NCBI GenBank assembly: GCA_951406725.2
Contig: OX597817.1
Coordinates: forward strand, 72,292,001-72,356,000
Direction: 5' to 3'
Length of the DNA stretch: 64,000 bases
DNA from: Octopus vulgaris
Taxonomy: Eukaryota
Below are positions 18,225 through 46,758 of the stretch, one piece after another (position 1 is the first letter of the stretch; each line of letters starts with the position of its first letter). The translations under genes were made by a program, and so were the position numbers. Under the pieces are notes generated by a model. It saw only the letters and a program-made list of their open reading frames with translations. It was not told the origin of the DNA and did not search any database.

Positions 18225-18428
18225 GCATTCTTTTATTCTTTTACTTGTTTCAGTCATTTGACTGTGGCCATGCTGGAGCACTGCCTTTAGTCTACCAAAT
18301 CCATTCACAAGGCTTTGGTCGGCCCGAGGCTATAGTAGAAGACACTTGCCCAACGTGCCACGCAGTGGGACTGAACCCGAAACCATGTGGCTGGTAAGCA
18401 AGCTACTTACCACACAGCCACTCCTGCG
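18225..18428 (-). mobile_element. SINE family A, internally deleted copy
   Basis: Reverse complement of the head (cgcaggagtggctgtgtggtaagtagcttgc) joined directly to the tail (cagtcaaatgactgaaacaagtaaaag). Confidence 0.85.
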
Positions 18429-18471
18429 TAATTACACTCACTCATACACACATACACTCACATACACGCGC

Positions 18472-18502
<31 letters not shown>

Positions 18503-18565
18503 TGTATGTATGTATGTATGTATGTATGTATGTATGTATGTATGTATGCATGTATGTATGGCATT

Positions 18566-19340
18566 AAGTGGAAGCACTGCTTCAGTGATCTTGAAATATT
18601 GGAAGGCTCTCGGTGTGAAAGTATAGAAGCTCTTGTGTTAAAGCAAAGGCTCAGATGGAGTGGTCATCTGGTCAGGATGAAGGATTCAAAGATGCCAAAA
18701 CAACTCTTTTATGGAGAGTTAGCTAAAGGAGAACGACCTCCACATAAACCAAAAAAGAGGTATAAGGACTTGCTGAAGGCTTCCTTAAGAGATGCTTGCA
18801 TCTCTCCTGACACATGGGAAGGCATAGCTATTGATCGTAGCAGGCGGAGAAGGATTGTGCATGAGGGGACAGTCACTTTTGAGAAATCTCGAGTTGCACA
18901 TGAGAAAGTAAGGAGGGATGTCAGGAAGGGCATCACTGTTACACTTCCAGAAAGGAAGGGTCTTCCTTTGATGCTGACATGCAATGTCTGTGCAAGACCC
19001 TGCCTCAGTAAAGCTGGACTCAAGAGTCATCTTCGTAGTCATAAAGCGAGACAGATGAGTGACAACCTGGCCAGTGGTGGTGGTGTAACACACCATACTA
19101 ATCATATCTGTTGGGCATGTGGAAGAGAGTGTAATTCAGCAGGAGGACTTAAACGACATGCAGGGGTAGATGAAGCCCAGTTACAACTACAGCCGGCTAT
19201 TACCGGTAAAGGTTTTAGTTGCCAATTCTGTACAAGACATTGTAGATCTTTAGCTGGGCTAAAAAGTCACATTTGATCACAACACCAGTAGCAGTTAAGC
19301 CTGGTGCAATGGCCATACTCGATAACGAGGGGGCAGCCAT
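18566..19340 (+). mobile_element. 5'-truncated RTE LINE 3' end with C2H2 zinc fingers
   Basis: RLRWSGHLVRMKDSKMPKQLFYGEL...PKKRYKD, then CNVC..LKSHLRSH, CWAC..LKRH, CQFC..LKSH; (TATG)n on both sides. Confidence 0.9.
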
Positions 19341-30758: not shown

Positions 30759-32326
30759 AGTAAGGAAAAATTTTTTTAAAAATGCAGAATGCTCAAATGA
30801 AAGAAAATTTTAATAAAATGAGAAAATGATAAAATATATAAATATATATATTTATTCAACCGGTTTTCGTCAATGTATGACTTGTCAAGAATATTTATGT
30901 TTTAAGAAGTTTTTTTAAAAATTAGAAAGGGGAAAAAAGAAAATTGCAATGTTTTTTGTAAAAGAATAATGATAAAAATGTACAAAAATTAAAAAATAAG
31001 TTCTCCGATACATTGTGAGTTCGTTGTGTATCTTGAGTTTTATGGTTGTTTACCAAAAAATTACCTTGAGGTGTTAAGATCCAAAGGGATTAAGAGCATG
31101 TGATGTGTTGTGTTGTTAAATTCAGCATGTTGCAGGACAGGAAGTAGTAGTAATTGTGGTCCTGGTTCTTCAGTTCCTGTGTTGTGAGTAAGGGGAGACA
31201 ACTCTTTTGAGTTCTTCAATAAAACCCAAATTATAAAACTATCATTTTAGCTTCATTTGCATTATCTTTTTTATATAATTGCTTGTTAACTTAACTTTCA
31301 GATTTTAACACTTTATTAATATTATTTTCTAATAATATAAAACTGCATAGACAATTGCATTTCAAATTGTCATATCATTTATAATAAAAATGATAGTAGT
31401 AACAACAACAATAGTGAAAATGATATTTAAAGAATATAAGTTTTAGCTTGAAGTGGTGAATGCATGGTATCTTTATATATTTGTGTTAGTCCATCCATGA
31501 AGAGTGAGGTAGAGAAAGGAAGTTTGATCAACGAGGAGTTTGCATATTAAGTTGTGTTTGGAATTTTTCAATAAAGAGATTCTCCTTGTTAATTCTCTCC
31601 TGTGTGGTGATCCCGTCTTTACATTGGTAGAAGGGGAATATATAGAATTTGGGGTTTAAGTCTTTAGCACATGAGTCTAAGTGGTCACTCAGTGGAATTT
31701 GTCGGTATTCCGGGAGATTTATTTGTTCTTTATGCACCGTTACTCGTTTACGTAACGGGAGACTCGTTTGTCCCACATAATTATGTTGGCAACCAGCGCA
31801 TGTGAGAACGTAGATAAGGTTCTCGGAGGAACAGGAGAAGTTAGTCTTGATTTTAAACTTCGTACCTTGTTTGAAGGTAAATTCAGAGCCTTCAAGTAGA
31901 AAGGGGCAGGTACCACAGTTTGAGCGTGCACATTTTTTTACTGTTGGGGGTGGATGTGGTGTGTGAAGTTTGGCATTTGTCAAGAGTTTTTTTAAAGATT
32001 TGTGTTGCCTTTTGCATTTGAGGATTTTGTGTGTATTTATAATGTTTTTCATTTTTGGGTCTGTTGACAGTAGACTGAGGTTTTGTATGATTGTGGTGTA
32101 TGCTTCGATATTTTTGGGGTTGTGGGTGGAAATGTATGGAAGTATTTTGAGGTTGTGTGTGGTGTTAGGTTGGGTGGTTATCAGTGTAGTGTTGTCTAGT
32201 TCTTTGGCGCGTTTTATTCCATACTCTATAAGGGTGGAGGGATATTGACGTTGTAATAGTGTTTTTTTGAGGTCTTGAAGGCGTATTTCTCGTGTTTTTG
32301 GATCCGAGACAATGGTGCATACCCTT
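30759..32326 (-). repeat. 1.57-kb inverted duplicate of the element's 3' part (35557-37124)
   Basis: ORF 31528-32052(-) encodes the same last 174 aa as 34256-36355(+); nearly identical DNA. Confidence 0.97.
30853..30893 (-). ncRNA. Hammerhead-like motif in the inverted pLTR copy
   Basis: Reverse complement of 36991-37031. Confidence 0.7.
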
Positions 32327-32556
32327 CTTTTTTTCTCCTTTCTAATTTTTAAAAAAACTTCTTAAAACATAAATATTCTTGACAAGTCATACATTGACGA
32401 AAACCGGTTGAATAAATATATATATTTATATATTTTATCATTTTCTCATTTTATTAAAATTTTCTTTCATTTGAGCATTCTGCATTTTTAAAAAAATTTT
32501 TCCTTACTTATCTTTTCTCCACGTGCGGTCAACACAACCCCACCATTTATTGATCT
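32325..32556 (+). repeat. 5' pseudo-LTR (partial tandem repeat)
   Basis: Direct repeat of 36942-37172 with only a few differences. Confidence 0.95.
32374..32414 (+). ncRNA. pLTR minimal type I hammerhead-like motif, U3-A8 core variant
   Basis: TATTC TTGACAA GTCA-TACAT-TGAC GAAA ACCGGT T GAATA; one extra A after GAAA makes the register at the cleavage site ambiguous. Confidence 0.7.
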
Positions 32557-32584
32557 GTACCCTCTACCACACGTGTGATTCAGA

Positions 32585-33427
32585 ATGCCTCCGAAAAACA
32601 AGAGCACTCTTACAGAGACAGTCACCAATAAGACCATTCTAAAAGAACTCAAAGTACTCAATACACATCTACTTACATTCTCCAAAAAAATTGACGAACT
32701 TCTCCTTCAACCCTGGGACAATTCAGAAAACAACCATCATCAACAACTTTCGGATAAAATTGATGTAAACCTAAACGAAATCAACACTACACTGAAAACT
32801 CTACTTTCGGATAAGATAGATGTAAACCTAAATGAAATCAACACTACACTGAAAACTCTACTTACCAATTCAACGCCAAAGAGACCTCAGACACCACTCA
32901 ACACACAGAAGGAACACATTTCAACCCCAGCACAACGCATTAAAAACCAGATCATCACTACTTGGACTAAGAAACTACACAACAGAAAACTTCTCTTCTG
33001 GAACATGCTCAAAAACCAAAACAAAGCTGATATTTACGACAAATGGTTAAACTCCTCCCCTATCATACTACCCCGAAAATTCCAAATCAAACACATCCCA
33101 GACGAACCTGAAAAACAACGCTCCCTAAGAGAAAAACTAACATTGGAAAAAATGAAAACCGAAGTAGAACTTCTAAAACTCAGAGCACAAAACCACGAAC
33201 AAAAATACACAAAAATAGACGATGAGATACTTCTAGAACTAACCTCACACACCAACGAACAGCCCCTCGAACTTGTTATTAAACTATGGAAAGATGAATG
33301 TGAAAAGGAAGAACGAACCTCCCTCAAACGCTGGGAAAACAACAAAGATTTCTTCCTCAACTATGAAACACAATTCATATTAAACCATAAATCCAAAAAC
33401 CCATTCATAAAAGTACCCACAACATAG
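32585..33427 (+). CDS. PLE upstream ORF1, coiled-coil-like; probably extended to 34077 originally
   Basis: 280-aa ATG ORF directly after the pLTR, K/E/L-rich helical segments, 19-aa tandem repeat; the frame stays open past TAG 33425, and a second frame is open 33646-34077. Confidence 0.8.
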   Translation: MPPKNKSTLTETVTNKTILKELKVLNTHLLTFSKKIDELLLQPWDNSENNHHQQLSDKIDVNLNEINTTLKTLLSDKIDVNLNEINTTLKTLLTNSTPKRPQTPLNTQKEHISTPAQRIKNQIITTWTKKLHNRKLLFWNMLKNQNKADIYDKWLNSSPIILPRKFQIKHIPDEPEKQRSLREKLTLEKMKTEVELLKLRAQNHEQKYTKIDDEILLELTSHTNEQPLELVIKLWKDECEKEERTSLKRWENNKDFFLNYETQFILNHKSKNPFIKVPTT

Positions 33428-34007
33428 ACTTCCACTGTACCCCATAAACACCATTCCAAACCGCACCTCAAATACACATACTCTCCAAACCCCCTCCTAA
33501 CAGGACACAACCTCCCCCAACCATATAAAAAACCCTTTCCCCCCCGAAACATCTCAAACAAGACCCACCACAAAACCTGGTTTTCCAATCACTCTAACAC
33601 CCCTCCCCCACCGATTAGAACCTTCAAGAACCTCCCATACACTAGAAATTATCCCCCCTCAAGGCTCCCCTCCCTCACACTAATAACAAACAAGGCATCC
33701 TACCCACACCGATACATATAAGACCCACCCAACGAACCCCCTATAGTCCACCCATCCAACAACCACATTCCTACCACATCTCCTACAGATCTCCAAACCC
33801 TCACATCCCACACGAACCCAATCACCACAACTACATACCCCCCTACATCCCCCCATACAATCTACCAGACACACACCCACAAACCCATCGCATTTCTCAC
33901 AAATCCTTACACCATCGCATCCCATACCAACACAAATACGACAACTACCTACCCCCCTCCAACCTCCCCACCCAAAAACACTCCTACACATACAACCAGA
34001 ACTTTAA

Positions 34008-36355
34008 CAAAGAATACACCCCTTACCTCAACAACCATTTTTTAGACAGAGGGGAAAAATACAAACACCACCGCTAACACAGACCCAAAATAAGAAAACA
34101 AAAATTATAAACCTCTCCAGCAAAACACTGACACCAACCCAAATCAACATCCTAGCAAGAGGTTTGAAATTCACACCCACCCCAAGAACACCCAACCCCC
34201 GGAGGTCAAGGATGACGTTTCTGAATTCTGCAGAAAACTTCGCCTAACAGAAGCTTTGACAGATATCAACAATGGGGACGACTCATTGATCAGAAATAAA
34301 AGCAACTTCCTACCACCAAAAGGGAGAAATAAAACACTGGACGATTTCTGTAAACACATCCAGAGTCTCCCCTTTACCCCAAGCAAAACCAAGGTAAAAT
34401 CCAATTTCAGTAAGGAAGAATGGGAAAACCTACGTGACATACAACTGGATAAAAACCTCACCATCAAAGAAGCGGACAAAGGGAGTGCTGTGGTCCTTAT
34501 GGACACGGAATTTTATAAACACCTAGTGTTCTCCATGCTTAACAATAACATTTTCTATGAGGTTATTAACAACTACAAACAGCAAAAAACAATCAGAAAC
34601 CTCACCACACTCATACGCCAACACGGTCAGGGACTCACAGAAAAAGAAAGGGATTATATCACCATTTTCAAATGCAAGCCCAGCCTTTTTTATGGCCTTC
34701 CTAAAATCCATAAAAACAAATACATCACCGAAGCCTGCAAACTCTCCACTGACATCCACATCAACATCAAAGCACCGGAGGACCTAAAACTAAGGCCCAT
34801 CGTGGCTGGTACCTCCTGTGAAACACACCGCCTGAGTAACTTCCTAGACATCCATTTGAAACCTTTCCTTACCCACATCAAAAGTTTCATTAGGGATGAT
34901 CTGGACATGCTCAAACACCTCCCGAAAACAGTTAACGAGGAGGCACTCCTGGTATCCTTTGATGTCATCAACCTCTACACCAACATTCCACATGAGTATG
35001 GTATAGAGGCAATTGACTTCTGGCTAGAAAAACACCCAGAGACATTCCCTGACCGCATTAACAAGTCTTTTATTACAGAATCTCTTAAGTTCATTCTGAC
35101 AAACAATTTTTTTCTCTTCGACGACACACACTACCGTCAAAAATGTGGCATTGCGATGGGTACCAAGGCTGCACCAGTCCTTGCGAACCTCATAATGGGT
35201 TACTTCGAACTGTCACTCTATGAAATATCAAGCCAGAAATTTGGACATGTTTTCCACACCTACCTAATGGAAAACTGGAAAAGGTATTTAGATGATTGTT
35301 TCATCATATGGAAAGAACCTTATGAAAAACTCCTGGAATTCAAAACCATACTAAACAACATACATCCCAACATCCAATTCACTATGGAATTAAGCAAACA
35401 TCATCTCCCATTCCTTGATCTCCTAATTATAAAAACACCTAAGAACCAAATCATAACAGACATCTACCACAAACCTACAGACTCACAACAATACCTCCTC
35501 TTTAGTTCATGCCACCCAAAACACACCAAGACAAATATCCCTTTCAATTTAGCTAAATGGGTATGCACCATTGTCTCGGATCCAAAAACACGAGAAATAC
35601 GCCTTCAAGACCTCAAAAAAACACTATTACAACGTCAATATCCCTCCACCCTTATAGAGTATGGAATAAAACGCGCCAAAGAACTAGACAACACTACACT
35701 GATAACCACCCAACCTAACACCACACACAACCTCAAAATACTTCCATACATTTCCACCCACAACCCCAAAAATATCGAAGCATACACCACAATCATACAA
35801 AACCTCAGTCTACTGTCAACAGACCCAAAAATGAAAAACATTATAAATACACACAAAATCCTCAAATGCAAAAGGCAACACAAATCTTTAAAAAAACTCT
35901 TGACAAATGCCAAACTTCACACACCACATCCACCCCCAACAGTAAAAAAATGTGCACGCTCAAACTGTGGTACCTGCCCCTTTCTACTTGAAGGCTCTGA
36001 ATTTACCTTCAAACAAGGTACGAAGTTTAAAATCAAGACTAACTTCTCCTGTTCCTCCGAGAACCTTATCTACGTTCTCACATGCGCTGGTTGCCAACAT
36101 AATTATGTGGGACAAACGAGTCTCCCGTTACGTAAACGAGTAACGGTGCATAAAGAACAAATAAATCTCCCGGAATACCGACAAATTCCACTGAGTGACC
36201 ACTTAGACTCATGTGCTAAAGACTTAAACCCCAAATTCTATATATTCCCCTTCTACCAATGTAAAGACGGGATCACCACACAGGAGAGAATTAACAAGGA
36301 GAATCTCTTTATTGAAAAATTCCAAACACAACTTAATATGCAAACTCCTCGTTGA
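34008..36355 (+). CDS. PLE reverse transcriptase + Zn-finger linker + GIY-YIG endonuclease (one 1-nt frameshift in the C-run at 34196-34200)
   Basis: IINLSS, GLKFTPTP, ADKG, FYGLPKIHK, LRPIV, SFDVINLYTNIP, GIAMG, RYLDD, LPFLD, YHKPT, SCHP, CARSNCGTC linker, NLIYVLTCAGCQHNYVGQT; 699 aa uninterrupted from 34256. Confidence 0.95.
34038..34044 (+). promoter_or_regulatory. Candidate -1 ribosomal frameshift slippery heptamer U-UUU-UUA
   Basis: In register with the extended ORF1 frame (CAT TTT TTA GAC...TAA 34077); a -1 slip enters the ATG-less frame FFRQRGKIQ...IINLSSKTLT...GLKFTPTP. Confidence 0.6.
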
Positions 36356-36941
36356 TCAAACTTCCTTTCTCTACCTCACTCTTCATGGATGGACTAACAC
36401 AAATATATAAAGATACCATGCATTCACCACTTCAAGCTAAAACTTATATTCTTTAAATATCATTTTCACTATTGTTGTTGTTACTACTATCATTTTTATT
36501 ATAAATGATATGACAATTTGAAATGCAATTGTCTATGCAGTTTTATATTATTAGAAAATAATATTAATAAAGTGTTAAAATCTGAAAGTTAAGTTAACAA
36601 GCAATTATATAAAAAAGATAATGCAAATGAAGCTAAAATGATAGTTTTATAATTTGGGTTTTATTGAAGAACTCAAAAGAGTTGTCTCCCCTTACTCACA
36701 ACACAGGAACTGAAGAACCAGGACCACAATTACTACTACTTCCTGTCCTGCAACATGCTGAATTTAACAACACAACACATCACATGCTCTTAATCCCTTT
36801 GGATCTTAACACCTCAAGGTAATTTTTTGGTAAACAACCATAAAACTCAAGATACACAACGAACTCACAATGTATCGGAGAACTTATTTTTTAATTTTTG
36901 TACATTTTTATCATTATTCTTTTACAAAAAACATTGCAATT

Positions 36942-37171
36942 TTCTTTTTTTCCCCTTTCTAATTTTTAAAAAAACTTCTTAAAACATAAATATTCTTGAC
37001 AAGTCATACATTGACGAAAACCGGTTGAATAAATATATATATTTATATATTTTATCATTTTCTCATTTTATTAAAATTTTCTTTCATTTGAGCATTCTGC
37101 ATTTTAAAAAAATTTTTCCTTACTTATCATTTCTCCACGTGCGGTCAACACAACCCCACCATTTATTGATC

Positions 37172-37172
<1 letters not shown>
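36942..37172 (+). repeat. 3' pseudo-LTR
   Basis: Direct repeat of 32325-32556; ends at (TA)n. Confidence 0.95.
36991..37031 (+). ncRNA. pLTR hammerhead-like motif, 3' copy
   Basis: Identical to 32374-32414. Confidence 0.7.
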
Positions 37173-37214
<42 letters not shown>

Positions 37215-37823
37215 CCCCTCTGCCCGGCAGTTGACATGATGGAACCCTAGAACCCTAGCCACTAAACGGTTTCTTATTTTCTCTCTGTTTATTTCTGTGT
37301 TCCTTTCTGTTGAAGAGCGTAGGTTCGAAACTTTCTTACTACCCGAGCGTTAAACTAACACATCTGTATGTTGTTTACACACCTGTCTTCCTCATTTGTA
37401 TTTTTTTTTTTGGTAAATTCTCACTATATATATATGTGTGTGTATATGTATGTATGTACGTATGTATGTATGTTTGCATCTATGTCTGTGTGTGTTCTTT
37501 TGTCTGTTCTTGTCACCCCAACATCGCTTGACAATCTGTGTTCGTGTCTGTTTATGGCCCCATAATATCGGCGGTTCGGCATAAGTGATCGACAGAATGA
37601 GTACTAGACTTAAAAGAAATAAGTCTTGTGGTCGATTTGTTCGGTTAAAAACGTTTCAAGATAGTGCTCCAGAATGGTCGCAATCAAATGCCTGCAAAAG
37701 CAAGTAAAAGAATAAAAGAAAAAAATAAAAGAATATATATATACACACACACATATGTGTGTGCGTGTGTGTGTGTGAAAAACTGCACGTATATTTCTTT
37801 TATTAATAAAATCATCTAGCATA

Positions 37824-38560
37824 GGCGCAGGAGTGGCTGTGTGGTAAGTAGCCTGCTTACCAACCACATGGTTCTGGGTTCAGTCCCACAGCGTGGCACC
37901 TTGGGCAAGTGTCTTCTACTATAGCATCGGGCCGACCAAAGCCTTGTGAGTTGATTTGGTTGACGGAAAACTGAAAGAAGCCCGTCGTATATATGTATCG
38001 TTATTACCATTCTTGTTTTTAATTTTATTTTTGTTTTTTGTATCTATATTCGTGTGGCATCGTCCGTTTTTTGTCCCTGTTTCGTATACATTCGATCCTT
38101 TTTCCAAGAAATCTAATGCTCGCAGCTTAGTTTTTCCTTGGGGCTGGCCGGGTTTGAGCGATATCAGGATTAATCAGCCGAAATTTGCTATGATGATCCG
38201 GTTCCTGACTGAAGATTAGAGGCTTCGAATGACCCGTCCGTTTTTTGTCTCGTCTCTTTGTGTATTTTGCGTTCTTGTCCCATTTTGTATTTTTTATATA
38301 TAATTTTTATACATATATATATATATATATATATGCGTGTATGTTTGTGCGTCTGTGTTTGTCCTCCTAGCATTGCTTGACAACCGATGCTGGTGTGTTT
38401 ACGTCCCCGTCACCTAGCGGTTCGGCAAAAGGGACCGATAGAATGAGTACTGGGCTTACAAAGAATAAGTCCCGGGGTCGAGTTGCTCGACTAAAGGCGG
38501 TGCTACAGCATGGCCGCAGTCAAATGACTGAAACAAGTAAAAGAGTAAAAGAGAGAGAGT
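37824..38560 (+). mobile_element. SINE family A interrupted by a ~310-bp insertion in its internal TA tract
   Basis: Head ggcgcaggagtggctgtgtggtaag...gggttcagtccc, unrelated sequence at about 37995-38310, then the 3' half ending gtaaaagagtaaaagag. Confidence 0.9.
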
Positions 38561-38831
38561 ATTAAGTACTAAAGCTTAAAAATTAACTGAGAAGAAATAG
38601 ATGATAAAATATATTACAATGAAGCAAGTTAGTCTTTGGTGAAAGGGCACAGATTTGTTTGTAGGATTTTTTTCCTTTCTTTTCCCTCTTTTTTTTATCA
38701 TTTATTGAATTATCTAATTATATGATTTTTTTTGTTGCTTTTTAGGTTCCGAAATATTTTGTGCTAAGTGAGTCGTCTCCCTTGAATAGTGCTTTCGCGT
38801 CGAGAAACCAACAATATTCTGCACGTACACA

Positions 38832-38878
<47 letters not shown>

Positions 38879-39685
38879 TGTGCGTGTGCGTTTTTGCGTG
38901 TGTTTGCGCGCGCGTATGTGTGTGTCAATGATGAAGGTACTGTGGTGATCATTATGCCTTTCAATGCTTCTAAGACTAGTCACACACACACACAAAAAAA
39001 AACAACGGAAAGTATCCTTAAGAACGATATCATTTAAATTCTTGATTTGGAGTGAGAGTGCCTAAAGGGATCCGAAGCCCAGGTGGATGTCCGATTAATT
39101 AGAGGGATGGTTTGACCAACGTGTTTCCATGCAGATTCTGTCTATCAAATTTAACTCACAGATCTTTGGTCAACCCGGAACTGTAAGAGAAGTCACGTGC
39201 TCATGGGGCCCCATCATTGCATGTAGATAATCACTGAACATCTTAACCACAGAGTGCCGGCCAGTTTATGTCCATACATACACATACAGACACATACACA
39301 CACATGCACAAACACGCGTACACGCACCTACATACATAAATACATGCATACGAACACACGCGCACAAATACACATATACACATGCATACATACATACATA
39401 CATACATACATACATACATACATACGTATGTACATACATACGTACATACATACATACGTATGTACATACATACGTACATACATACATACGTATATACATA
39501 CGTACATACATACATACATACACATCTAGGCACAAAACCCGAAATTTGGTGGGGTGGAGGCCAGTTGAATAGATCAACCCCAGTATGCAACTGGTACTTA
39601 ATTTATCGACCTGGAAAGGTTGAAAGGCAAAGTCGACCTCGGTGGAACACACGCATATACTTACATACATATATATACACATATA

Positions 39686-39717
<32 letters not shown>

Positions 39718-39727
39718 CATACATACA

Positions 39728-39763
<36 letters not shown>

Positions 39764-39776
39764 TATACATACATAT

Positions 39777-39859
<83 letters not shown>

Positions 39860-39864
39860 CATAT

Positions 39865-39895
<31 letters not shown>

Positions 39896-39946
39896 CATAC
39901 ATATATATATATATACATACATATATATATTTATATACATATATAT

Positions 39947-41274
39947 AACATTGGTGTCTCTGGAAAGTTACTGAAATGGATTAAGTGTTTCCTGACAGAC
40001 AGATCTCAACATGTTGTAGTTGAAGGGGTAAAATCAATTTCAGTAAGGCCTTCGACAGGGTCGATCACAAGATCCTATTGAAAAAACTATCCAACATTGG
40101 TGTCTCTGGAAAGTTACTGAAATGGATTAAGTGTTTCCTGACAGACAGATCTCAACATGTTGTAGTTGAAGGGGTAAAATCAAGCCCAGCCAAAGTCAGT
40201 AGTGGCGTTCCGCAAGGCACTGTGCTGGGCCCACTTCTTTTCATCATTTACATTAATGACATTAATGACATCATCAAGCACAGCAACATAAAAATCTTTG
40301 CAGATGACTCCAAGCTACAGAAGGTCATAAATGAGGCGAGTGACCGGACATGCCTTCAGTCAGATCTACTGGCTGTTATCCAATGGGCAGAAAAAAACAA
40401 TATGCTGCTGAACGAGGATAAATTTGAGCTAATCCACTTTGGAAAAGAGGATGCCCTGAAACTCCCATACTCCCTTCCTTCAGGTGAAACTCTCGTGGCG
40501 TCCAACAACATCAGAGACTTGGGAGTAATTGTGGACAACAACGTAAGCTGGGCCACTCATATAAACACCAAAGTTGACATGGCCCGCAGAATGTGTTCCT
40601 GGATTCTCAGAACTTTCCAGTCGAGAGATATCCACACCATTATCCTTCTCTTCTCCACTTTTGCCCGACCCCACCTTGAATACTGTTGTCCACTGTGGTC
40701 TCCCCACACAATACAAGGTATCATAAAAGTTGAAGCACCTCAAAGGGCAATCACAAAAAAGATAGATGGCATGACAGGCCTCGACTATTGGGGTCGACTA
40801 GAAAAGCTAAAACTCTATTCTCTCCAACGTCGTCGTGAGCGCTACATCATCTGCATGATGTGGAAAATATTCCATCAGCATTGCCCAAATGATGTTGGCA
40901 TCACCTTTAAGGTACATCCAAGGCTTGGGCCCCGTGCCATCCGCCCAAAACAAAAATCGCACTCTCATCTCATAACAACAATACGGCACAATTATTTCAC
41001 CTCAATTGGCCCCGCTCTCTTTAACATTACACCAAAACACATTAAAACAGAAACTGACCCTATAGGGTTCAAGAAGTCTTTGGACAGATTCCTTCAAGAA
41101 ATCCCGGATAAACCCCCTACACCCGGATATGTCTCTGTAAACAATAACTCTCTACTTGAGTGGGCCATAGTGCCCAAATTCTGACTTGAAAGACTTCACC
41201 AGGTGGTGCTATTAAGTTAGACATGGCCTGGGCCAATAATGGCCGAAACCTATCAAAGTATCAAAGTATCAAAG
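39947..41274 (+). mobile_element. Young 5'-truncated CR1/jockey-group LINE
   Basis: Uninterrupted frame 40039-41184: [56 protein letters not shown]; (TATCAAAG)3 tail; lies within TA/TACA microsatellite. Confidence 0.93.
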
Positions 41275-41281
41275 TATATAT

Positions 41282-41326
<45 letters not shown>

Positions 41327-41431
41327 CATACATATATATACATACATACATATATATATACATACATACATATATATACATACATACATATATATACATA
41401 CATACATATACATACATATACATACATACAT

Positions 41432-41499
<68 letters not shown>

Positions 41500-41500
41500 G

Positions 41501-41542
<42 letters not shown>

Positions 41543-42270
41543 CGTCAGTGAATCATATATCCGAAAAAGAAGCACACTCTAAGTTGATCAATGGTTTCGC
41601 ATGCTTAAAGTGCTTAGCTTTATTTATAAGGTTTCTTTTTACCTGCAAAACTCATTTTCTTTTTCCTGTAAAACTTGTTTAGTTAAAGAGATGCACTAAA
41701 TATTTATATTCAATAAAACTTTCTTTTTTTAGAACCCTCCGGTAAAATGTGATTCAGTCTTTTGACGTAAAACTCACTTTGTAAAAACACTAAAAAATTA
41801 TAAATATGACATTTTTTTGTGGGAAACTGTAATTTTGAATATATTTTTCAGAAATTTATATAGACATATAACATATTTACCTCTTATGTTAATAAACAAA
41901 CATTATTTATTTCAAATATATATATAAAAAACTTTGCACAATTGAAACTCTTTTTATTATAATTGTTTTCTATTTTTCTATATATGCGTGTGTACATTCA
42001 TTCTTCTCTGTGTGTGTGTGTGTGTGGTGCATGTGTGGCGTGTGTGTGTGTATGTATGAGTGTGTGTGTGCATGTTTATGCGTGTGTGCACGTGTGTGCG
42101 TACGTGTGTGTATGTGTGTGCACGGGTGTGCATGTGGTTGAGCATGCATGTGTATGTGTGTGCGTGTGTACGTATGTATGTGTGTGTACGTGCGTGTGTG
42201 TGTGTGCGAGCTTAAACAGATACACCACACATATTACTCCCACAGTCCAACAGACATATACCGGATATAC

Positions 42271-42486
42271 TCTCTCTTTTACTCTTTTACTTGTTTCAGT
42301 CATTTGACTGCGGCCATGCTGGAGCACCGCCTTTAGTCGAGCAAATCGACCCCGGGACTTATTCTTTGTAAGCCCAGTACTTATTCTATCGGTCTCTTTT
42401 GCCGAACAGCTAAGTGACGGGGACGTAAACACACCAGCATCGGTTGTCAAGCAATGCTAGGGGGACAAACACAGACACACAAACAT

Positions 42487-42555
<69 letters not shown>

Positions 42556-42721
42556 TACGACATGCTTCTTTCAGTTTCCGTCTACCAAATCCACTCACAA
42601 GGCATTGGTCGGCCCGAGGCTATAGCAGAAGACACTTGCCCAAGATGCCACGCTGTGGGACTGAACCCGGAACCATGTGGTTAGTAAGCAAGCTACTTGC
42701 CACACTGCCACTCCTACGCCT
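42271..42721 (-). mobile_element. SINE family A, full length
   Basis: Complete head, internal (TA)n, body and gtaaaagag tail on the minus strand. Confidence 0.9.
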
Positions 42722-42859
42722 ATATGTTTGTTATAAGTCGACAAAATTTAACCAGCTATAGATGAGAGATGAATAAAGTTTTGTTATGTGGTATGCACCA
42801 AATCTTAACTTTCTCATGTTCCTACCAAATGTTTTGACAGCATCAGCGTGGCAGCTTCC

Positions 42860-43160
42860 GATCTGATACAGGAAATTAAAAGACATACAATAGCCATGAC
42901 ACTTACCACCATTTGCAGATCGCCAAGTTTGTTGAAAGTGGTTAAGTCATGAGTGTTCAACATCAAGAAAAAGCAAGAGTTTCATGGTGAGGACGTGTCG
43001 TCTGTGGCCAAAAGACAAAGATATTTTCGCCAATCCGAGGTCTCAAGCGACAGCTGAGCTCGTTCAGTTGATCTGGGACATCATTGATGATAATCCCAGA
43101 GTGTGGATTAGTGTTACCGATGAGCAGTTCATTGTGATAGAGACTACTATAAATCGTAAG
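42860..43160 (+). mobile_element. Tc1/mariner transposase N-terminal (HTH) remnant
   Basis: TAELVQLIWDIIDDNPRVWISV...VIETTINRK resembles the second HTH of maT/Tc3-like transposases. Confidence 0.45.
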
Positions 43161-43225
43161 GTACATACATACATACATACATACATACATACATACATAC
43201 ATACATACATACATACATACACATT

Positions 43226-43415
43226 ATGGCTGCCCCTTCGTTATCGAGTACGGCCATTGCACGAAGCTTAACTGTTACTGGTGCTGTGATCGAATGTGAC
43301 TTTTTAGCCCAGCTAAAGATCTACAATGTCTTGTACAAAATTGGCAACTAAAACCTTTACTGGTAATAGCCGGCTGTAGTTGTAACTGGGCTCCATGTAC
43401 CTTTGCATGTCGTTT
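43226..43415 (-). mobile_element. Short RTE 3' end, same family as 18566-19340
   Basis: KRHAKVHGAQLQLQPAITSKGFSCQFCTRHCRSLAGLKSHIRSQHQ; (TACA)n on both sides. Confidence 0.9.
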
Positions 43416-43606
43416 ACACACATACATACATGCATACACACATACATGCACACATACATACATACATACATACATACATACATACATACATACATACATA
43501 CATACATACATACATACATACATACATACATACATACATGCATACATACGTGCATGCATACGTACATACATACATACATAAATAAATACATAAATACATA
43601 CATATA

Positions 43607-43712
43607 AAAATACCTGGTTGATGATGTTGAAATTCCAATGAAAGAGCCTTGGATCTAGGTTAGAAACCGGCTATCTCTCTATTGGCAAGAAATCTGGAAA
43701 AAAACTGAACAA
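43607..43712 (+). mobile_element. Solo 3' UTR of the R4/Dong-like LINE
   Basis: Matches the reverse complement of 62475-62580 (gatgttgaaatt...gagccttggatctagg...gaaaccggct). Confidence 0.8.
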
Positions 43713-43914
43713 TCACATTCATACCAGGCGTGGCTGTGTAGTAAGATGCTTGCTTCCCAACAACATGGTTCCAGGGTCAGTCTCACAATGTAGCACCTTG
43801 GGTAAAAGACACTCTGCGCCTATACACGTACTCATATACGTATTTTCACTCCACCATCATACGACGGGAATTCTATAAATAAATGTGCACATTCCATCAT
43901 TTCTTTAGTCGTAA

Positions 43915-43962
43915 CTTGCCTGAAGACCCCTTGCACCCACGGGCGGAAGTCAGAGTAGCAAG
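43915..43962 (+). ncRNA. Degenerate type I hammerhead-like motif
   Basis: CTTGC CTGAAGA CCCC-loop-GGGC GGAA GTCAGAGT A GCAAG; stem I perfect, GAAA mutated. Confidence 0.5.
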
Positions 43963-44186
43963 AGATTAACTCGACTTAAATAAAATATCATTAATCTCTA
44001 CTATGGTATTAAGTACTCTTTTTCCGACAGTCAAACTCTAGTTTCTCTCTCTCTCTGCCTCTCTCTCGCTCCCTCTCTTCCTCTCCCCCTCTCTCACCCT
44101 ATCCCTCTCTTCCTCCTTCTCCCTTTCCCTCCTCTTCTCTCCGTTTCTTTTTCTCTGTTCTTTCTCTTTCTCTGTCTCTGTATGCG

Positions 44187-44226
<40 letters not shown>

Positions 44227-44391
44227 TAGTTATCGCCATACTAATATGGCATTCTTATAAAAATAAGAATAAAGCTGTCCGCTTATTAGCTCCATGAGGC
44301 CATCGCCTTAAGTTAGCTATTTGATACACAAACTGTATCCATATAACCTTCGAACAAGGGAGGTCAGTCGCTCCACACTACTTGACCGACA

Positions 44392-44433
44392 GCTACAGAC
44401 GCGTTTCGGGGTATTGCCCCTTGTCAATGTAGC
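44392..44433 (-). ncRNA. Type I hammerhead ribozyme, unit 1
   Basis: GCTACA TTGACAA GGGG-CAATA-CCCC GAAA CGCG TC TGTAGC: 6-bp stem I, U3-A8 core, 4-bp stem II, palindromic ACGCGT helix III, GUC triplet. Confidence 0.85.
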
Positions 44434-44753
44434 GTAGTCGGACCAGTAGGTGTCGCTTCTGACTATCTCTGTTCGAAGGTTTTATTTACCTAGTTTCGGT
44501 GGAATACATCCACTTGTTTTCAATAATAGAAATATTAAAATTACTAAGTCTCTCTAAAAGAGAATACGGCAGCGTTCCTGGAAATTAATAGTTATCGCCA
44601 TACTAATATGGCATTCTTATAAAAATAAGAATAAAGCTGTCCGCTTATTAGCTCCATGAGGCCATCGCCTTAAGTTAGCTATTTGATACACAAACTGTAT
44701 CCATATAACCTTCGAACAAGGGAGGTCAGTCGCTCCACACTACTTGACCGACA

Positions 44754-44795
44754 GCTACAGACGCGTTTCGGGGTATTGCCCCTTGTCAATGTAGC
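44754..44795 (-). ncRNA. Type I hammerhead ribozyme, unit 2
   Basis: Identical to unit 1 motif. Confidence 0.85.
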
Positions 44796-45115
44796 GTAGT
44801 CGGACCAGTAGGTGTCGCTTCTGACTATCTCTGTTCGAAGGTTTTATTTACCTAGTTTCGGGGGAATACATCCACTTGTTTTCAATAATAGAAATATTAA
44901 AATTACTAAGACTCTCTAAAAGAGAATACGGCAGCGTTCCTGGAAATTAATAGTTATCGCCATACTAATATGGCATTCTTATAAAAATAAGAATAAAGCT
45001 GTCCGCTTATTAGCTCCATGAGGCCATCGCCTTAAGTTAGCTATTTGATACACAAACTGTATCCATATAACCTTCGAACAAGGGAGGTCAGTCGCTCCAC
45101 ACTACTTGACCGACA

Positions 45116-45157
45116 GCTACAGACGCGTTTCGGGGTATTGCCCCTTGTCAATGTAGC
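45116..45157 (-). ncRNA. Type I hammerhead ribozyme, unit 3
   Basis: Identical to unit 1 motif. Confidence 0.85.
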
Positions 45158-45326
45158 GTAGTCGGACCAGTAGGTGTCGCTTCTGACTATCTCTGTTCGA
45201 AGGTTTTATTTACCTAGTTTCGGGGGAATACATCCACTTGTTTTCAATAATAGAAATATTAAAATTACTAAGACTCTCTAAAAGAGAATACGGCAGCGTT
45301 CCTGGAAATTAATAGTTATCGCCATA

Positions 45327-45395
45327 CTAATAAGCGGACAGCTTTATTCTTATTTTTATAAGAATGCCATATTAGTATGGCGATAACTATTAATT
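45327..45395 (+). repeat. 69-bp inverted copy of the array terminus
   Basis: Reverse complement of the first ~68 nt of the unit, joined through ctaata microhomology. Confidence 0.93.
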
Positions 45396-45560
45396 GACAA
45401 CCGATGGTAGTGTGTTTACGTACCCGTAACTTAGCGGTTCGGTAGAATAAGTACAAGGCTTACAAAGAATAAGTCTTGGGGTCGATTCGCTCGACTAAAG
45501 GCGGTGCTCCAGCATGGCCACAGTCAAATGACTGAAACAGGTAAAAGAGTAAAAGAGAAT
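45394..45560 (+). mobile_element. SINE family A, 3' half
   Basis: ttgacaaccgatgg...cttagcggttcgg...cagtcaaatgactgaaacaggtaaaagag. Confidence 0.85.
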
Positions 45561-45661
45561 ATATATATATATATATATATATATGAAAATGTGACCGCGT
45601 GTGTACCGTTGGCGATTTTTTTTCCTCTGTCTTCCCTTCAATGGATCTTTCTATCTCCTAT

Positions 45662-45696
45662 GTTTCCGACGAAGAGCTCCGCTCGAAACGTTAAGC
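45662..45696 (+). ncRNA. Degenerate minimal hammerhead-like motif
   Basis: GTTT CCGACGA A GAGC-TCC-GCTC GAAA CG TT AAGC. Confidence 0.55.
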
Positions 45697-46758
45697 CCTC
45701 CTCCTTTCCTTCTTTTCTGGACGTCCAATAATACTATATTTGTTCCACGTCCTCGCGTTGTTGTGTTTTTTTGTGCTTTCTTGTTTGGATTAACTATATA
45801 TATATATGAAGGTACAGGAGAGTAATTACGCTGGGTGCAATAGAACAATCCGGGTGTGTATGTAATAAATTTTAAAATTGAGCAATCGAACAAATACTTC
45901 AGAGCGAGCAAGGATTGTCTTCTTCAGAACAAATGTTGAGATTTCTCCTTTATGGAGCTGAAACTTGGAATCTGAAACAATAGCTTCACGATTGACTTGA
46001 AGGCACGTAGATTAAGCTTCCCGTTATAGCTCAAAGCACCTCATGGGGTGGTTAAAGCTAAAAGGGTGACATATGGACACATTCCGCTCTTTCCTATTAT
46101 TGTTGCTCAAGGCAGGGTAGGATTTGCTGGTCTCTGGTGTCAAATGACAAAACGTAACACTTAATTTCATGCATATCAATTACAAAGTAAGCGAAGCTTT
46201 TAGATTAAATTTCATGTGTATACAACATGTTTATATTACAGCGTCATACAATTAACCACGCTGTGCTATGTAGTTTATCTTCATATATGTAGAGATACAA
46301 TATGTTCCAAAAAAGCAGATCTGAGTTTGCGCTTAATCGATCACCTAAAATCCTGCCAAAAATCGCAAACTCTGAGCTGAGCTGAGGCTAAACAACAGCA
46401 GTAGCAACAACAACAACAACAACAACAACAACACTATCAATACCTTTAGTATATTTAAAAATGGGGGAAAATATTAACAGACACTCGACAGTTTAATTTA
46501 GGGGATATGCAGGAATGAAAAGACGTATTTAAGGGAGCAAACTTTACATACAATGATGGGAATTGGAAATAATGTCTATATAATGTATATATGGGTATAT
46601 ATTAGTGTACAGAGATATGTCGGTATGTATGTATGTATGATTGTATATGTACATGCGGATGCATGCATGTGTGTATTTATGTATGCATATATGTAAGTAT
46701 GTATTTATGCTTATATGTAGATATGTATTTATGCATGAATGTATATGTATGTATATAG

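Follow-up and report, generated by a model that had tools for sequence, protein, structure and literature searches.

The 362-bp tandem array in this window (the whole 64,000-nucleotide stretch of Octopus vulgaris DNA that we analysed) is best explained as one locus of a young, dispersed family of non-coding retrozymes that is likely copied by a Neptune-type Penelope-like element (PLE) enzyme and whose U3-A8 hammerhead core likely arose independently of that in the PLE next to it; we give this reading a probability of roughly 0.7. Because retrozyme copies carry the PLE insertion footprint, they likely borrow a PLE enzyme. The initial annotation had proposed an autonomous/non-autonomous pair, of which mobilisation by PLE machinery is well supported by this footprint and dedicated pairing with, or descent from, the neighbour is not.

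A Penelope-like element and a retrozyme array

The features on which the analysis rests are the following.

30759..32324, minus strand: inverted, 5'-truncated 3' PLE copy (blastn 99.9% to 35559-37124)
30858..30888, minus strand: U3-A8 minimal hammerhead motif of an inverted pLTR, inside that copy and outside the stretch covered by the initial annotation
32325..32559, plus strand: 5' pLTR of the PLE (231/235 columns identical to the 3' pLTR)
32379..32409, plus strand: U3-A8 minimal type I hammerhead motif (UUGACAA, stem II GUCA/UGAC, GAAA plus an extra A, palindrome (A)ACCGGU(U))
32585..33427, plus strand: N-terminal ORF of the PLE, without Pfam match
34038..34044, plus strand: TTTTTTA heptamer, predicted -1 frameshift site at the ORF1/RT junction
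34094..36355, plus strand: open frame with RT (PF00078, E 7.7e-08), thumb, CX4CxxC linker and GIY-YIG endonuclease
36942..37175, plus strand: 3' pLTR of the PLE with a hammerhead motif at 36996-37026, followed by (AT)n
44222..45332, minus strand: 362-bp non-coding retrozyme unit in 3.1 head-to-tail copies (GC 41%, longest ATG frame 21 aa)
44398-44427, 44760-44789 and 45122-45151, minus strand: U3-A8 canonical-type hammerhead motifs (TTGACAA GGGG CAATA CCCC GAAA CGCG TC)
45327..45394, plus strand: 68 nt of the unit (positions 295-362) in inverted orientation, a PLE-type 5' inversion

With an RT carrying a C-terminal GIY-YIG domain and CCHH, pLTRs, an inverted copy and a tail, the neighbour is an EN+ PLE. 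Its linker before GIY-YIG reads CARSNCGTC and matches the Neptune-type CX2-5CxxC signature, which is also a Nematis feature (PMC8557442); the label "Neptune" given to it initially thus fits linker and AT targets, although Nematis fits the linker too. The element resembles Neptune and Nematis PLEs and the anole Poseidon element PAc (PMC8557442; PMC11167929) in its RT with C-terminal GIY-YIG, its linker, its partial tandem and inverted copy, one-sided tail, microsatellite targets and two RT start sites. It differs in a longer tail (about 48 nt against 30-40) and in a separate ORF1 joined via the predicted -1 slippery site; PAc itself belongs to the Poseidon clade and has C3-G8. The heptamer lies at the same place in PLE families B and D and has T7A in family C. 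A TAG at 33425-33427 cuts the N-terminal ORF of the window copy, where 5/5 other copies showing the site have CAG. The N-terminus of the RT lies in a different frame, upstream of a run of C at 34196-34200 that counts five in 39/50 copies and six, in frame, in the other 11. This family has a short 3' end at 37124-37127 and a long one, with a ~48-nt tail, at about 37172-37175; the inverted copy at 30759-32324 stops within an (AT)n-like run at the counterpart of the short site (37124). LINE fragments, with an RT-like frame at 40024-41184, are also present in the window.

The whole array including its inverted piece spans 44222-45394, and its units differ at 2 and 0 positions. One 3' end abuts (AT)n at 44190-44221, and the inversion gives the array two outward-facing 3' ends, both of them short. 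It has the hallmarks of a non-LTR retrozyme: tandem non-coding units within 170-400 nt, one hammerhead each, GC under 50% and dispersed copies, with target duplications of ~10-12 bp at two loci (L011 and L013). The unit is predicted to form a rod-like circle (z -7.6 against 100 shuffles), and two copies fold into a predicted dimeric hammerhead. Animal non-LTR retrozymes (PMC7229834; bioRxiv 10.64898/2026.07.22.740005) share the unit size, GC content, canonical type I hammerhead, palindromic helix III, predicted rod-like circle and PLEs as proposed mobilisers; the octopus family differs in its U3-A8 core with a C3-G8 sister family alongside. A second hammerhead-like stretch near unit positions 60-95 has no proper core. 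Unit-to-unit joints in contigs of two presumed RNA runs say nothing on expression, since DNA runs show such joints as well.

Hammerhead motifs and the 3-8 pair

The UUGACAA cores that had been described in the PLE pLTRs and in the array are confirmed by reading the motifs, by covariation and by genome matches (below). They occur in three pLTR hammerheads (30858-30888, 32379-32409 and 36996-37026), the latter two reading TTGACAA GTCA TACAT TGAC GAAA ACCGG TT on the plus strand. Architecturally, PLE and retrozyme motifs are not the same, because the PLE motif carries one A more and its helix I is weak, with 5 bp. The retrozyme motif is a type I hammerhead with UUGACAA, GAAA and GUC boxes and co-varying helices; that at 44760-44789 has a 6-bp helix I followed by a bulge and 5 bp, with a predicted cut after C at 44760. 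The PLE motif has boxes and stem II and needs an extra A or G at 17 (GAAA-A-CCGG-U-U-G); if helix I is UAUUC/GAAUA, the cut at 32379-32409 would follow U at 32409. In its predicted dimer no unpaired N17 remains: the extra A after GAAA pairs with the would-be N17, which sets the window family and family F apart from published PLE hammerheads. Local folds reach -4.7 kcal/mol for the PLE motif and -25.8 kcal/mol for the retrozyme motif. Rfam at its gathering score has no match in the window.

The proposal that U3-A8 is a compensatory double change rather than decay is well supported. Across 14 aligned motifs 97.5% of cells pair, and 13/17 pairs show two-sided changes (0/500 shuffles reach this); the 3-8 pair is U-A in ten rows and C-G in four, one of the latter being a lake-metagenome tandem (L231). 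No mixed C3-A8 or U3-G8 occurs among the first 100 retrozyme matches listed. A CpG-deamination route from G8 to A8 via N7=C was rejected, older copies having N7=U.

The PLE families of this genome show all four Watson-Crick forms (U-A, A-U, G-C and C-G). Here, U3-A8 occurs in four families, among them family B with a protein only 39-45% identical. On a tree of 191 endonuclease columns, which has two rows under half filled and homologues without named Neptune references, the window PLE groups with families D and F (support 93/91, unstarred) and its nearest rows carry A3-U8. A strict downstream scan missed families B-E, and motifs were read by eye; the family E motif was recovered in 2/12 loci only, and the commonest form in the main subfamily of B has GCAA for GAAA (23/32). 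By tblastn, no PLE protein was found beside several other motif families (L109, L111-L120, L158-L167); an RT fragment at L110 has no established tie to the motif there.

U3-A8 is not new, having been published for PLEs as well as for further natural hammerheads. Schistosoma PLEs have it, with about 1,300 matches in Schistosoma mansoni via the Cercyon element (PMC4209133), and in several natural hammerheads C3-G8 co-varies to U3-A8, swaps cited as active in vitro in passages of Perreault et al. 2011 (PMC3088659); these passages name U3-A8 as the sole natural swap, with A3-U8 and G3-C8 not seen. The window PLE shares with published PLE hammerheads (PMC4209133) the short helix I, palindromic helix III, pLTR location and U3-A8 variant, and differs in that related families here also use A3-U8 and G3-C8. 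Natural cores of these two types were not found in the literature searched, the supplements and figures of which may hold such variants.

Two retrozyme families

The 362-bp family has many copies, 95-99% alike and partly in tandem, on many chromosomes (1,698 first-look candidates, 40 of them scored). A retrozyme-type pattern has 1,280 exact matches in the genome for both retrozyme families together and 0 for the reversed control. A hand count of the core among the first 100 matches listed gave 22 TTGACAAG, 66 TTGAAAAG, 1 TTGATAAG and 11 CTGACGAG, so that among these matches UUGAAAA (66) outnumbers UUGACAA (22) and N7=C is a minority state. Two older copies (72-75% identical) have TTGATAA and a helix III loop CTAG; as they too carry U3-A8, this pair is old in the 362 lineage.

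The sister family has a 359-bp unit and a canonical C3-G8 core (CUGACGA GAGG CAAUA CCUC). Outside the core the two units are similar beyond chance (global z 4.96, local z 5.0; 0/500 shuffles as high), a relation that rests on roughly 50-55% identity. The 580-bp lake-metagenome tandem has an identical stem II with C3-G8 and outside the core no similarity (171/300 shuffles as high). Since an unrelated tandem shares stem II in this form, C3-G8 is favoured as the probable older state. The shared N7=C of the motifs in the window is thus a minority form among the matches listed, and the ACCGGU palindrome is carried also by the C3-G8 sister and by A3-U8 PLE families. A further pattern search returned only decayed copies.

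The insertion footprint

Inversion, a one-sided tail and AT targets are the described footprint of PLEs (PMC8557442; PMC3846280), which in vitro work links to two sites where the RT starts and to nicks in both strands of AT-rich DNA (PMC11167929), and the retrozymes show all three features, as expected of elements mobilised by a PLE of any family. At 16 loci of the 362 family with 29 outward 3' ends, 15 ends fall at unit positions 358-362, 13 at 52-64 and one elsewhere, and 21/29 run into (AT)n. Thirteen of the 16 loci are inverted, and 11 of these pair a long end with a short one. In the 359-bp sister 4/9 loci are inverted, 4/4 with one end of each kind, and ends lie at homologous places. Both families thus sit mostly in (AT)n, with 5' inversions and two fixed end sites about 55-61 nt apart; poly(A) ends are absent from the loci examined. 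At 38 loci of the window PLE family, 35 ends are long and 10 are short, and 6/6 true inverted loci have one of each; these end counts are biased, retrozyme loci being best matches or tandem clusters and the PLE query ending at the long site. Tail length fails as a partner marker, with ~48, ~36 and ~32 nt in PLE families A (that of the window), B and C and ~61 and ~55 nt in the retrozymes. Paired ends and inversions of PLE type on retrozymes were not found in the literature searched, nor by term search in PMC7229834 and bioRxiv 10.64898/2026.07.22.740005.

The following route would account for these observations. A multimeric transcript would be cut by dimeric hammerheads, whose helix III forms by pairing of ACGCGU from adjacent units, and the cut RNA would close into a 362-nt rod-like circle. 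A PLE protein may bind this circle, nick both strands of an AT-rich target and start reverse transcription once per strand, at two internal sites that lie about 61 nt from each other. This would leave two ends, one long and one short, together with an inversion; reading round the circle or along a multimer would give 1-4 tandem units. The 3-8 pair would drift in each lineage among U-A, A-U, G-C and C-G, because it only needs to be Watson-Crick.

Origin of the retrozyme

One alternative agrees with our preferred reading on mechanism and differs in origin only: the 362- and 359-bp units would derive from the pLTR of another PLE family, unsampled or extinct, with a canonical hammerhead, and be moved by its descendants. 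This route has been proposed (bioRxiv 10.64898/2026.07.22.740005), the units resemble pLTRs in having two sites like RT starts on the downstream side of the hammerhead, and the PLE copies inspected are a minority of those in the genome. However, no ORF remnant is joined to a unit in the fetched loci, all PLE hammerheads seen here are of the minimal type whereas the retrozyme helix I is long, and the retrozyme stem II recurs in an unrelated lake organism. Unlike for many Xenopus families, the 165 fetched loci, which cover little of some 17,600 endonuclease candidates, yielded no PLE whose pLTR is a homologue of the 362- or 359-bp unit; that search matched old retrozyme copies plus two weak hits (E 0.002 and 0.016). 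We consider such an origin unlikely.

Quite unlikely, too, is that the retrozyme descends from or specifically pairs with the neighbouring PLE family, with U3-A8 as an inherited mark. Both carry UUGACAA in the window, both families are young and abundant with the same footprint, most intact endonuclease matches of one query belong to the window family, and pLTR homology is reported for Xenopus retrozymes (24/57 families match TEs, which are PLEs in nearly all cases; bioRxiv 10.64898/2026.07.22.740005). Yet the unit has no similarity beyond shuffles to pLTR, 3' UTR or whole PLE on either strand (z -1.8 to 1.6), the homology expected of a non-autonomous derivative; an AC-rich look-alike between the 359-bp unit and the PLE tail was not significant (45/500 shuffles as high). 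The detectable kin of the array is the C3-G8 retrozyme, which moves with the same footprint, and not the window pLTR. Minority N7=C (among the 100 matches listed), the tails (~61 against ~48 nt) and the A3-U8 of the nearest PLE rows also speak against descent. The hammerhead of the window PLE is in the flanks of 0/41 fetched retrozyme loci (some overlapping), and old retrozyme copies at L181 and L188 share (AT)n runs with family B copies. Apparent template-switch chimeras at L181, L188 and L216 are just common (AT)n targets or separate insertions. The chance that this PLE lies within 7 kb of a given locus is about 0.8%, so that hundreds of loci should include several such pairs; retrozyme and PLE probably adjoin since each is abundant and the two insert into the same targets.

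The shared core had been taken as a mark of derivation from, or pairing with, this lineage. Because the 3-8 pair occurs here in all four Watson-Crick forms, U3-A8 is no mark of kinship. Two outcomes that the initial annotation had named as refuting largely came about: U3-A8 is present in several PLE families and in Schistosoma PLEs (PMC4209133), and the array traces to a C3-G8 retrozyme. Our preferred reading of an independent U3-A8 has one counterpoint: the pair is old in the 362 lineage and present in four PLE families, and an ancestry too old to detect is possible. As mobiliser, the window PLE family is one candidate among several young families, less likely than not.

That the array is a satellite amplified at the DNA level or by a LINE, with the hammerhead as a passenger, is very improbable: the near-identical tandem units and the LINE fragments of the window would suit it, but the arrays are short and dispersed, with fixed paired ends, inversions and no poly(A) ends, and N7 varies while 3 and 8 co-vary.

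Implications

A dedicated U3-A8 pair of elements would have been more striking and does not hold. The four-way variation of the 3-8 pair makes core variants unsafe as markers of lineage, and descriptors fixed on CUGANGA, like Rfam in this window, miss whole families. We give even odds to a broader picture in which these retrozymes would be viroid-like circles that carry no helper sequence and have their own pair of PLE start sites, and the PLE radiation would have run through all four 3-8 forms (with more than a thousand A3-U8 copies and one G3-C8 subfamily), each still selected for cleavage. What moves animal retrozymes is an open question, for which published support consists of co-occurrence and pLTR homology. 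To this, the pairing of a long with a short end adds a footprint read directly from the genome, along with two sites where priming is predicted; if the broader picture is true, the genomic ends of these retrozymes map exactly where a PLE enzyme primes on the circle.

Hammerhead motifs of the retrozyme array and the neighboring PLE

Two elements of the window, in an animal genome of 2.8 Gb whose repeats have a cephalopod-like look, carry the hammerhead motifs analyzed here:

30759-37175, Penelope-like element (PLE, family A) insertion: inverted 3' copy, then pLTR-ORFs-pLTR
44222-45394, array of 3.1 copies of a non-coding 362-bp retrozyme unit plus a 68-nt inverted piece, 7 kb from the PLE insertion

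All six motifs share UUGACAA and a palindromic helix III, with a stem-loop II of 13 nt, confirming the core and helix III that the initial annotation had described for both elements. The U3-A8 pair of this core, replacing the tertiary C3-G8 pair of CUGANGA, is already known from print: Cervera and de la Pena 2014 (PMC4209133) describe it for Schistosoma PLEs, with about 1,300 hits, and Perreault 2011 (PMC3088659) for several natural hammerheads, where in vitro activity of such 3-8 swaps is cited. The array and pLTR motifs are of different hammerhead types. The array motif is canonical, with a helix I of 6 bp, a bulge, 5 further pairs and a GUC site; the 362-nt circle is predicted to be rod-like with this hammerhead at its tip (z -7.6 against 100 shuffles), and two unit copies together are predicted to fold as a dimeric hammerhead. 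The pLTR motif is minimal, with an additional A behind GAAA. Because this A pairs with the would-be N17 in the predicted dimer, activity of the window pLTR hammerhead without help seems doubtful; cleavage by an anole PLE hammerhead required protein (PMC11167929). In two PLE families (window 32403 and 37020; L129:3108), the additional A also creates a palindrome of 8 nt, AACCGGUU, which may trap the cleavage site or allow a register shift to G17.

Across 14 aligned motifs, pairing is seen in 97.5% of cells, and 10 motifs have U-A and 4 have C-G as their 3-8 pair, in an alignment whose covariation control is inflated by related rows. Contigs of four public runs show no alternative letter at positions 3 and 8 (5% threshold), mostly A at the variable position N7, and one helix I pair altered on both sides (44751 and 44800).

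Other repeats of the window include several copies of a SINE-like repeat (37500-37720, 38340-38560, 42280-42490, 45395-45560), two LINE-like RT fragments (18398-19276 and 40024-41184) and a separate common repeat with a hammerhead-like motif, (C)CGACGA/CTGACGA AGAGCTCCGCTC GAAA CGTT (45640-45700; also L128 and L134). Additional dispersed hammerhead-like families with a longer palindromic helix III occur in U3-A8 and C3-G8 forms (L047, L058, L060, L072, L091, L119, L120).

Core pair 3-8 among PLE families

Further PLE families were collected by endonuclease searches with two outside homologues and by motif scans, and their hammerheads were read downstream of the ORFs. U3-A8 is found in family A, in B (29 of the 30 loci with a matched motif, among 32), in G (L067, L070) and in F (L129; one locus, 52-residue match). 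A3-U8 characterizes family D (8 of 10 loci; about 60-64% protein identity to A, against 39-45% for B), D2 and H, and occurs at 2 of 12 loci of E; family C has C3-G8 with U4C (7 of 8 loci). In a tree built on 191 endonuclease columns from 27 rows, with none dropped and with L169 on a long branch that is unreliable, a 99/98 clade unites A, D, E, F, G and H. Judged from these sequences, U3-A8 is not specific to family A: it recurs in B, outside this clade, and the rows nearest to A are those of the A3-U8 family D. This speaks against the earlier reading of the shared U3-A8 core as a sign of an autonomous/non-autonomous pair.

G3-C8 cores are present at L238 and L252-L256, where tblastn detected no endonuclease; L252 shares 72-78% identity over 560-750 nt with L257 (core G3-U8), L258 and L260, all three with endonuclease. 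A purine-3/pyrimidine-8 pattern gives 1,387 matches against 7 in the control, and a hand count of the first 100 matches listed yields 91 A-U, 6 G-C, 2 A-C and 1 G-U. Literature searches of main texts returned no natural A3-U8 or G3-C8 core, the sole G3-C8 mention found being an engineered variant (PMC3884650). Within the literature searched, the natural A3-U8 PLE hammerheads and the related G3-C8 subfamily (e.g., L232-L266) are new.

In family B (L173-L208), the youngest subfamily has GCAA for GAAA yet is highly amplified, which suggests that cleavage is dispensable for this PLE. Four diverged PLE families share a TTTTTTA heptamer in an equivalent position ahead of the RT start (window 34038-34044, L205, L212, L261; T7A in family C). 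ORF1 and the RT frame overlap by -1, and programmed frameshifting is predicted. A similar site is known from Athena/Terminon elements. Downstream of the heptamer there is no strong hairpin, and a literature search gave no reports of PLE frameshifting. ORF1 of the window PLE contains a 57-bp tandem duplication (32746-32863).

Relatives of the 362-bp retrozyme

A genome scan for canonical cores (731 matches against 138 in the control) uncovered a dispersed 359-bp tandem family with CUGACGA GAGG CAAUA CCUC GAAA CCGG UC and 2,428 first-look candidates. With the core left out, the 362- and 359-bp units align at a z of about 5 (0 of 500 shuffles as high). L231, a lake metagenome contig, holds a 580-bp tandem with C3-G8 hammerheads (325-348 and 905-928) whose stem II, GGGG CAAUA CCCC, is identical to that of the 362 unit; outside the core it shows no significant likeness to this unit (171 of 300 shuffles as high), so a common stem II by itself does not account for the similarity of 362 and 359. 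A single pattern spanning both families has 1,280 matches against 0 in the control. By hand count, the first 100 matches listed comprise 66 TTGAAAAG, 22 TTGACAAG, 1 TTGATAAG and 11 CTGACGAG, with no mixed 3-8 states among them. Since these relatives differ at 3-8 and older copies retain each state (U3-A8 in L157 and L216, C3-G8 in L188), the pair switched at least once within the retrozyme lineage; from L231 and canonical retrozymes, we infer that C3-G8 is the older state.

Insertion footprint and candidate partner PLEs

Of 16 loci sampled from the 362 family, 11 as best matches and 5 as tandem clusters, 13 have inversions. Outward 3' ends fall at two fixed sites in 28 of 29 cases (15 at 358-362, 13 at 52-64), 21 of 29 enter (AT)n, and 11 of the 13 inverted loci combine one long and one short end. 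In the 359 family, 4 of 9 loci are inverted and the homologous two sites hold 11 of 13 ends. PLE family A has 35 long and 10 short ends at 38 loci, counts affected by some overlapping loci and a query biased toward long ends; of its eight two-strand rows, six have one end of each kind and two (L026 and L038, one locus) continue into a tandem ORF. An inverted 5' copy with a tail on one side, as in the retrozyme footprint, is the signature of PLEs (PMC8557442, PMC3846280), with an in vitro counterpart in two internal RT start sites and both-strand nicks in AT-rich DNA (PMC11167929).

The initial annotation had the retrozyme derived from or mobilized by the window PLE lineage. Descent from family A, like U3-A8 as a lineage mark, appears unlikely, the 362 unit resembling the window PLE no more than shuffles do. 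As mobilizer, family A is one candidate, though less likely than not. A copy of A would lie within 7 kb of a retrozyme by chance at about 0.8% per locus, and A is young (94-99.9%), as are B (median 99.7%), C (98.2%), E (96%) and D (94%). The window copy is defective, with an early stop; its frame break is common to 39 of 50 copies, with 11 in frame, and may be a homopolymer error. The family A hammerhead motif occurs in the flanks of 0 of 41 sampled retrozyme loci, and (AT)n runs are shared between old retrozyme copies and family B. Tail length, the distance between long and short ends, was rejected as a partner marker, the retrozyme values (~61 and ~55) fitting none of A (~48), B (~36) and C (~32).

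That retrozymes are non-autonomous PLE derivatives was suggested before (PMC7229834), and a 2026 preprint makes the case on the basis of co-occurrence and of pLTR homology in Xenopus (bioRxiv 10.64898/2026.07.22.740005); term searches of these two texts gave no "tail" in the preprint and no "inverted" in PMC7229834. Within the literature searched, the twin-end footprint of PLEs is new for retrozymes that lack pLTR homology. Cleavage, RNA circles and priming sites are all predicted, and from the footprint we consider it likely, at roughly 85%, that these retrozymes are mobilized by some PLE family.
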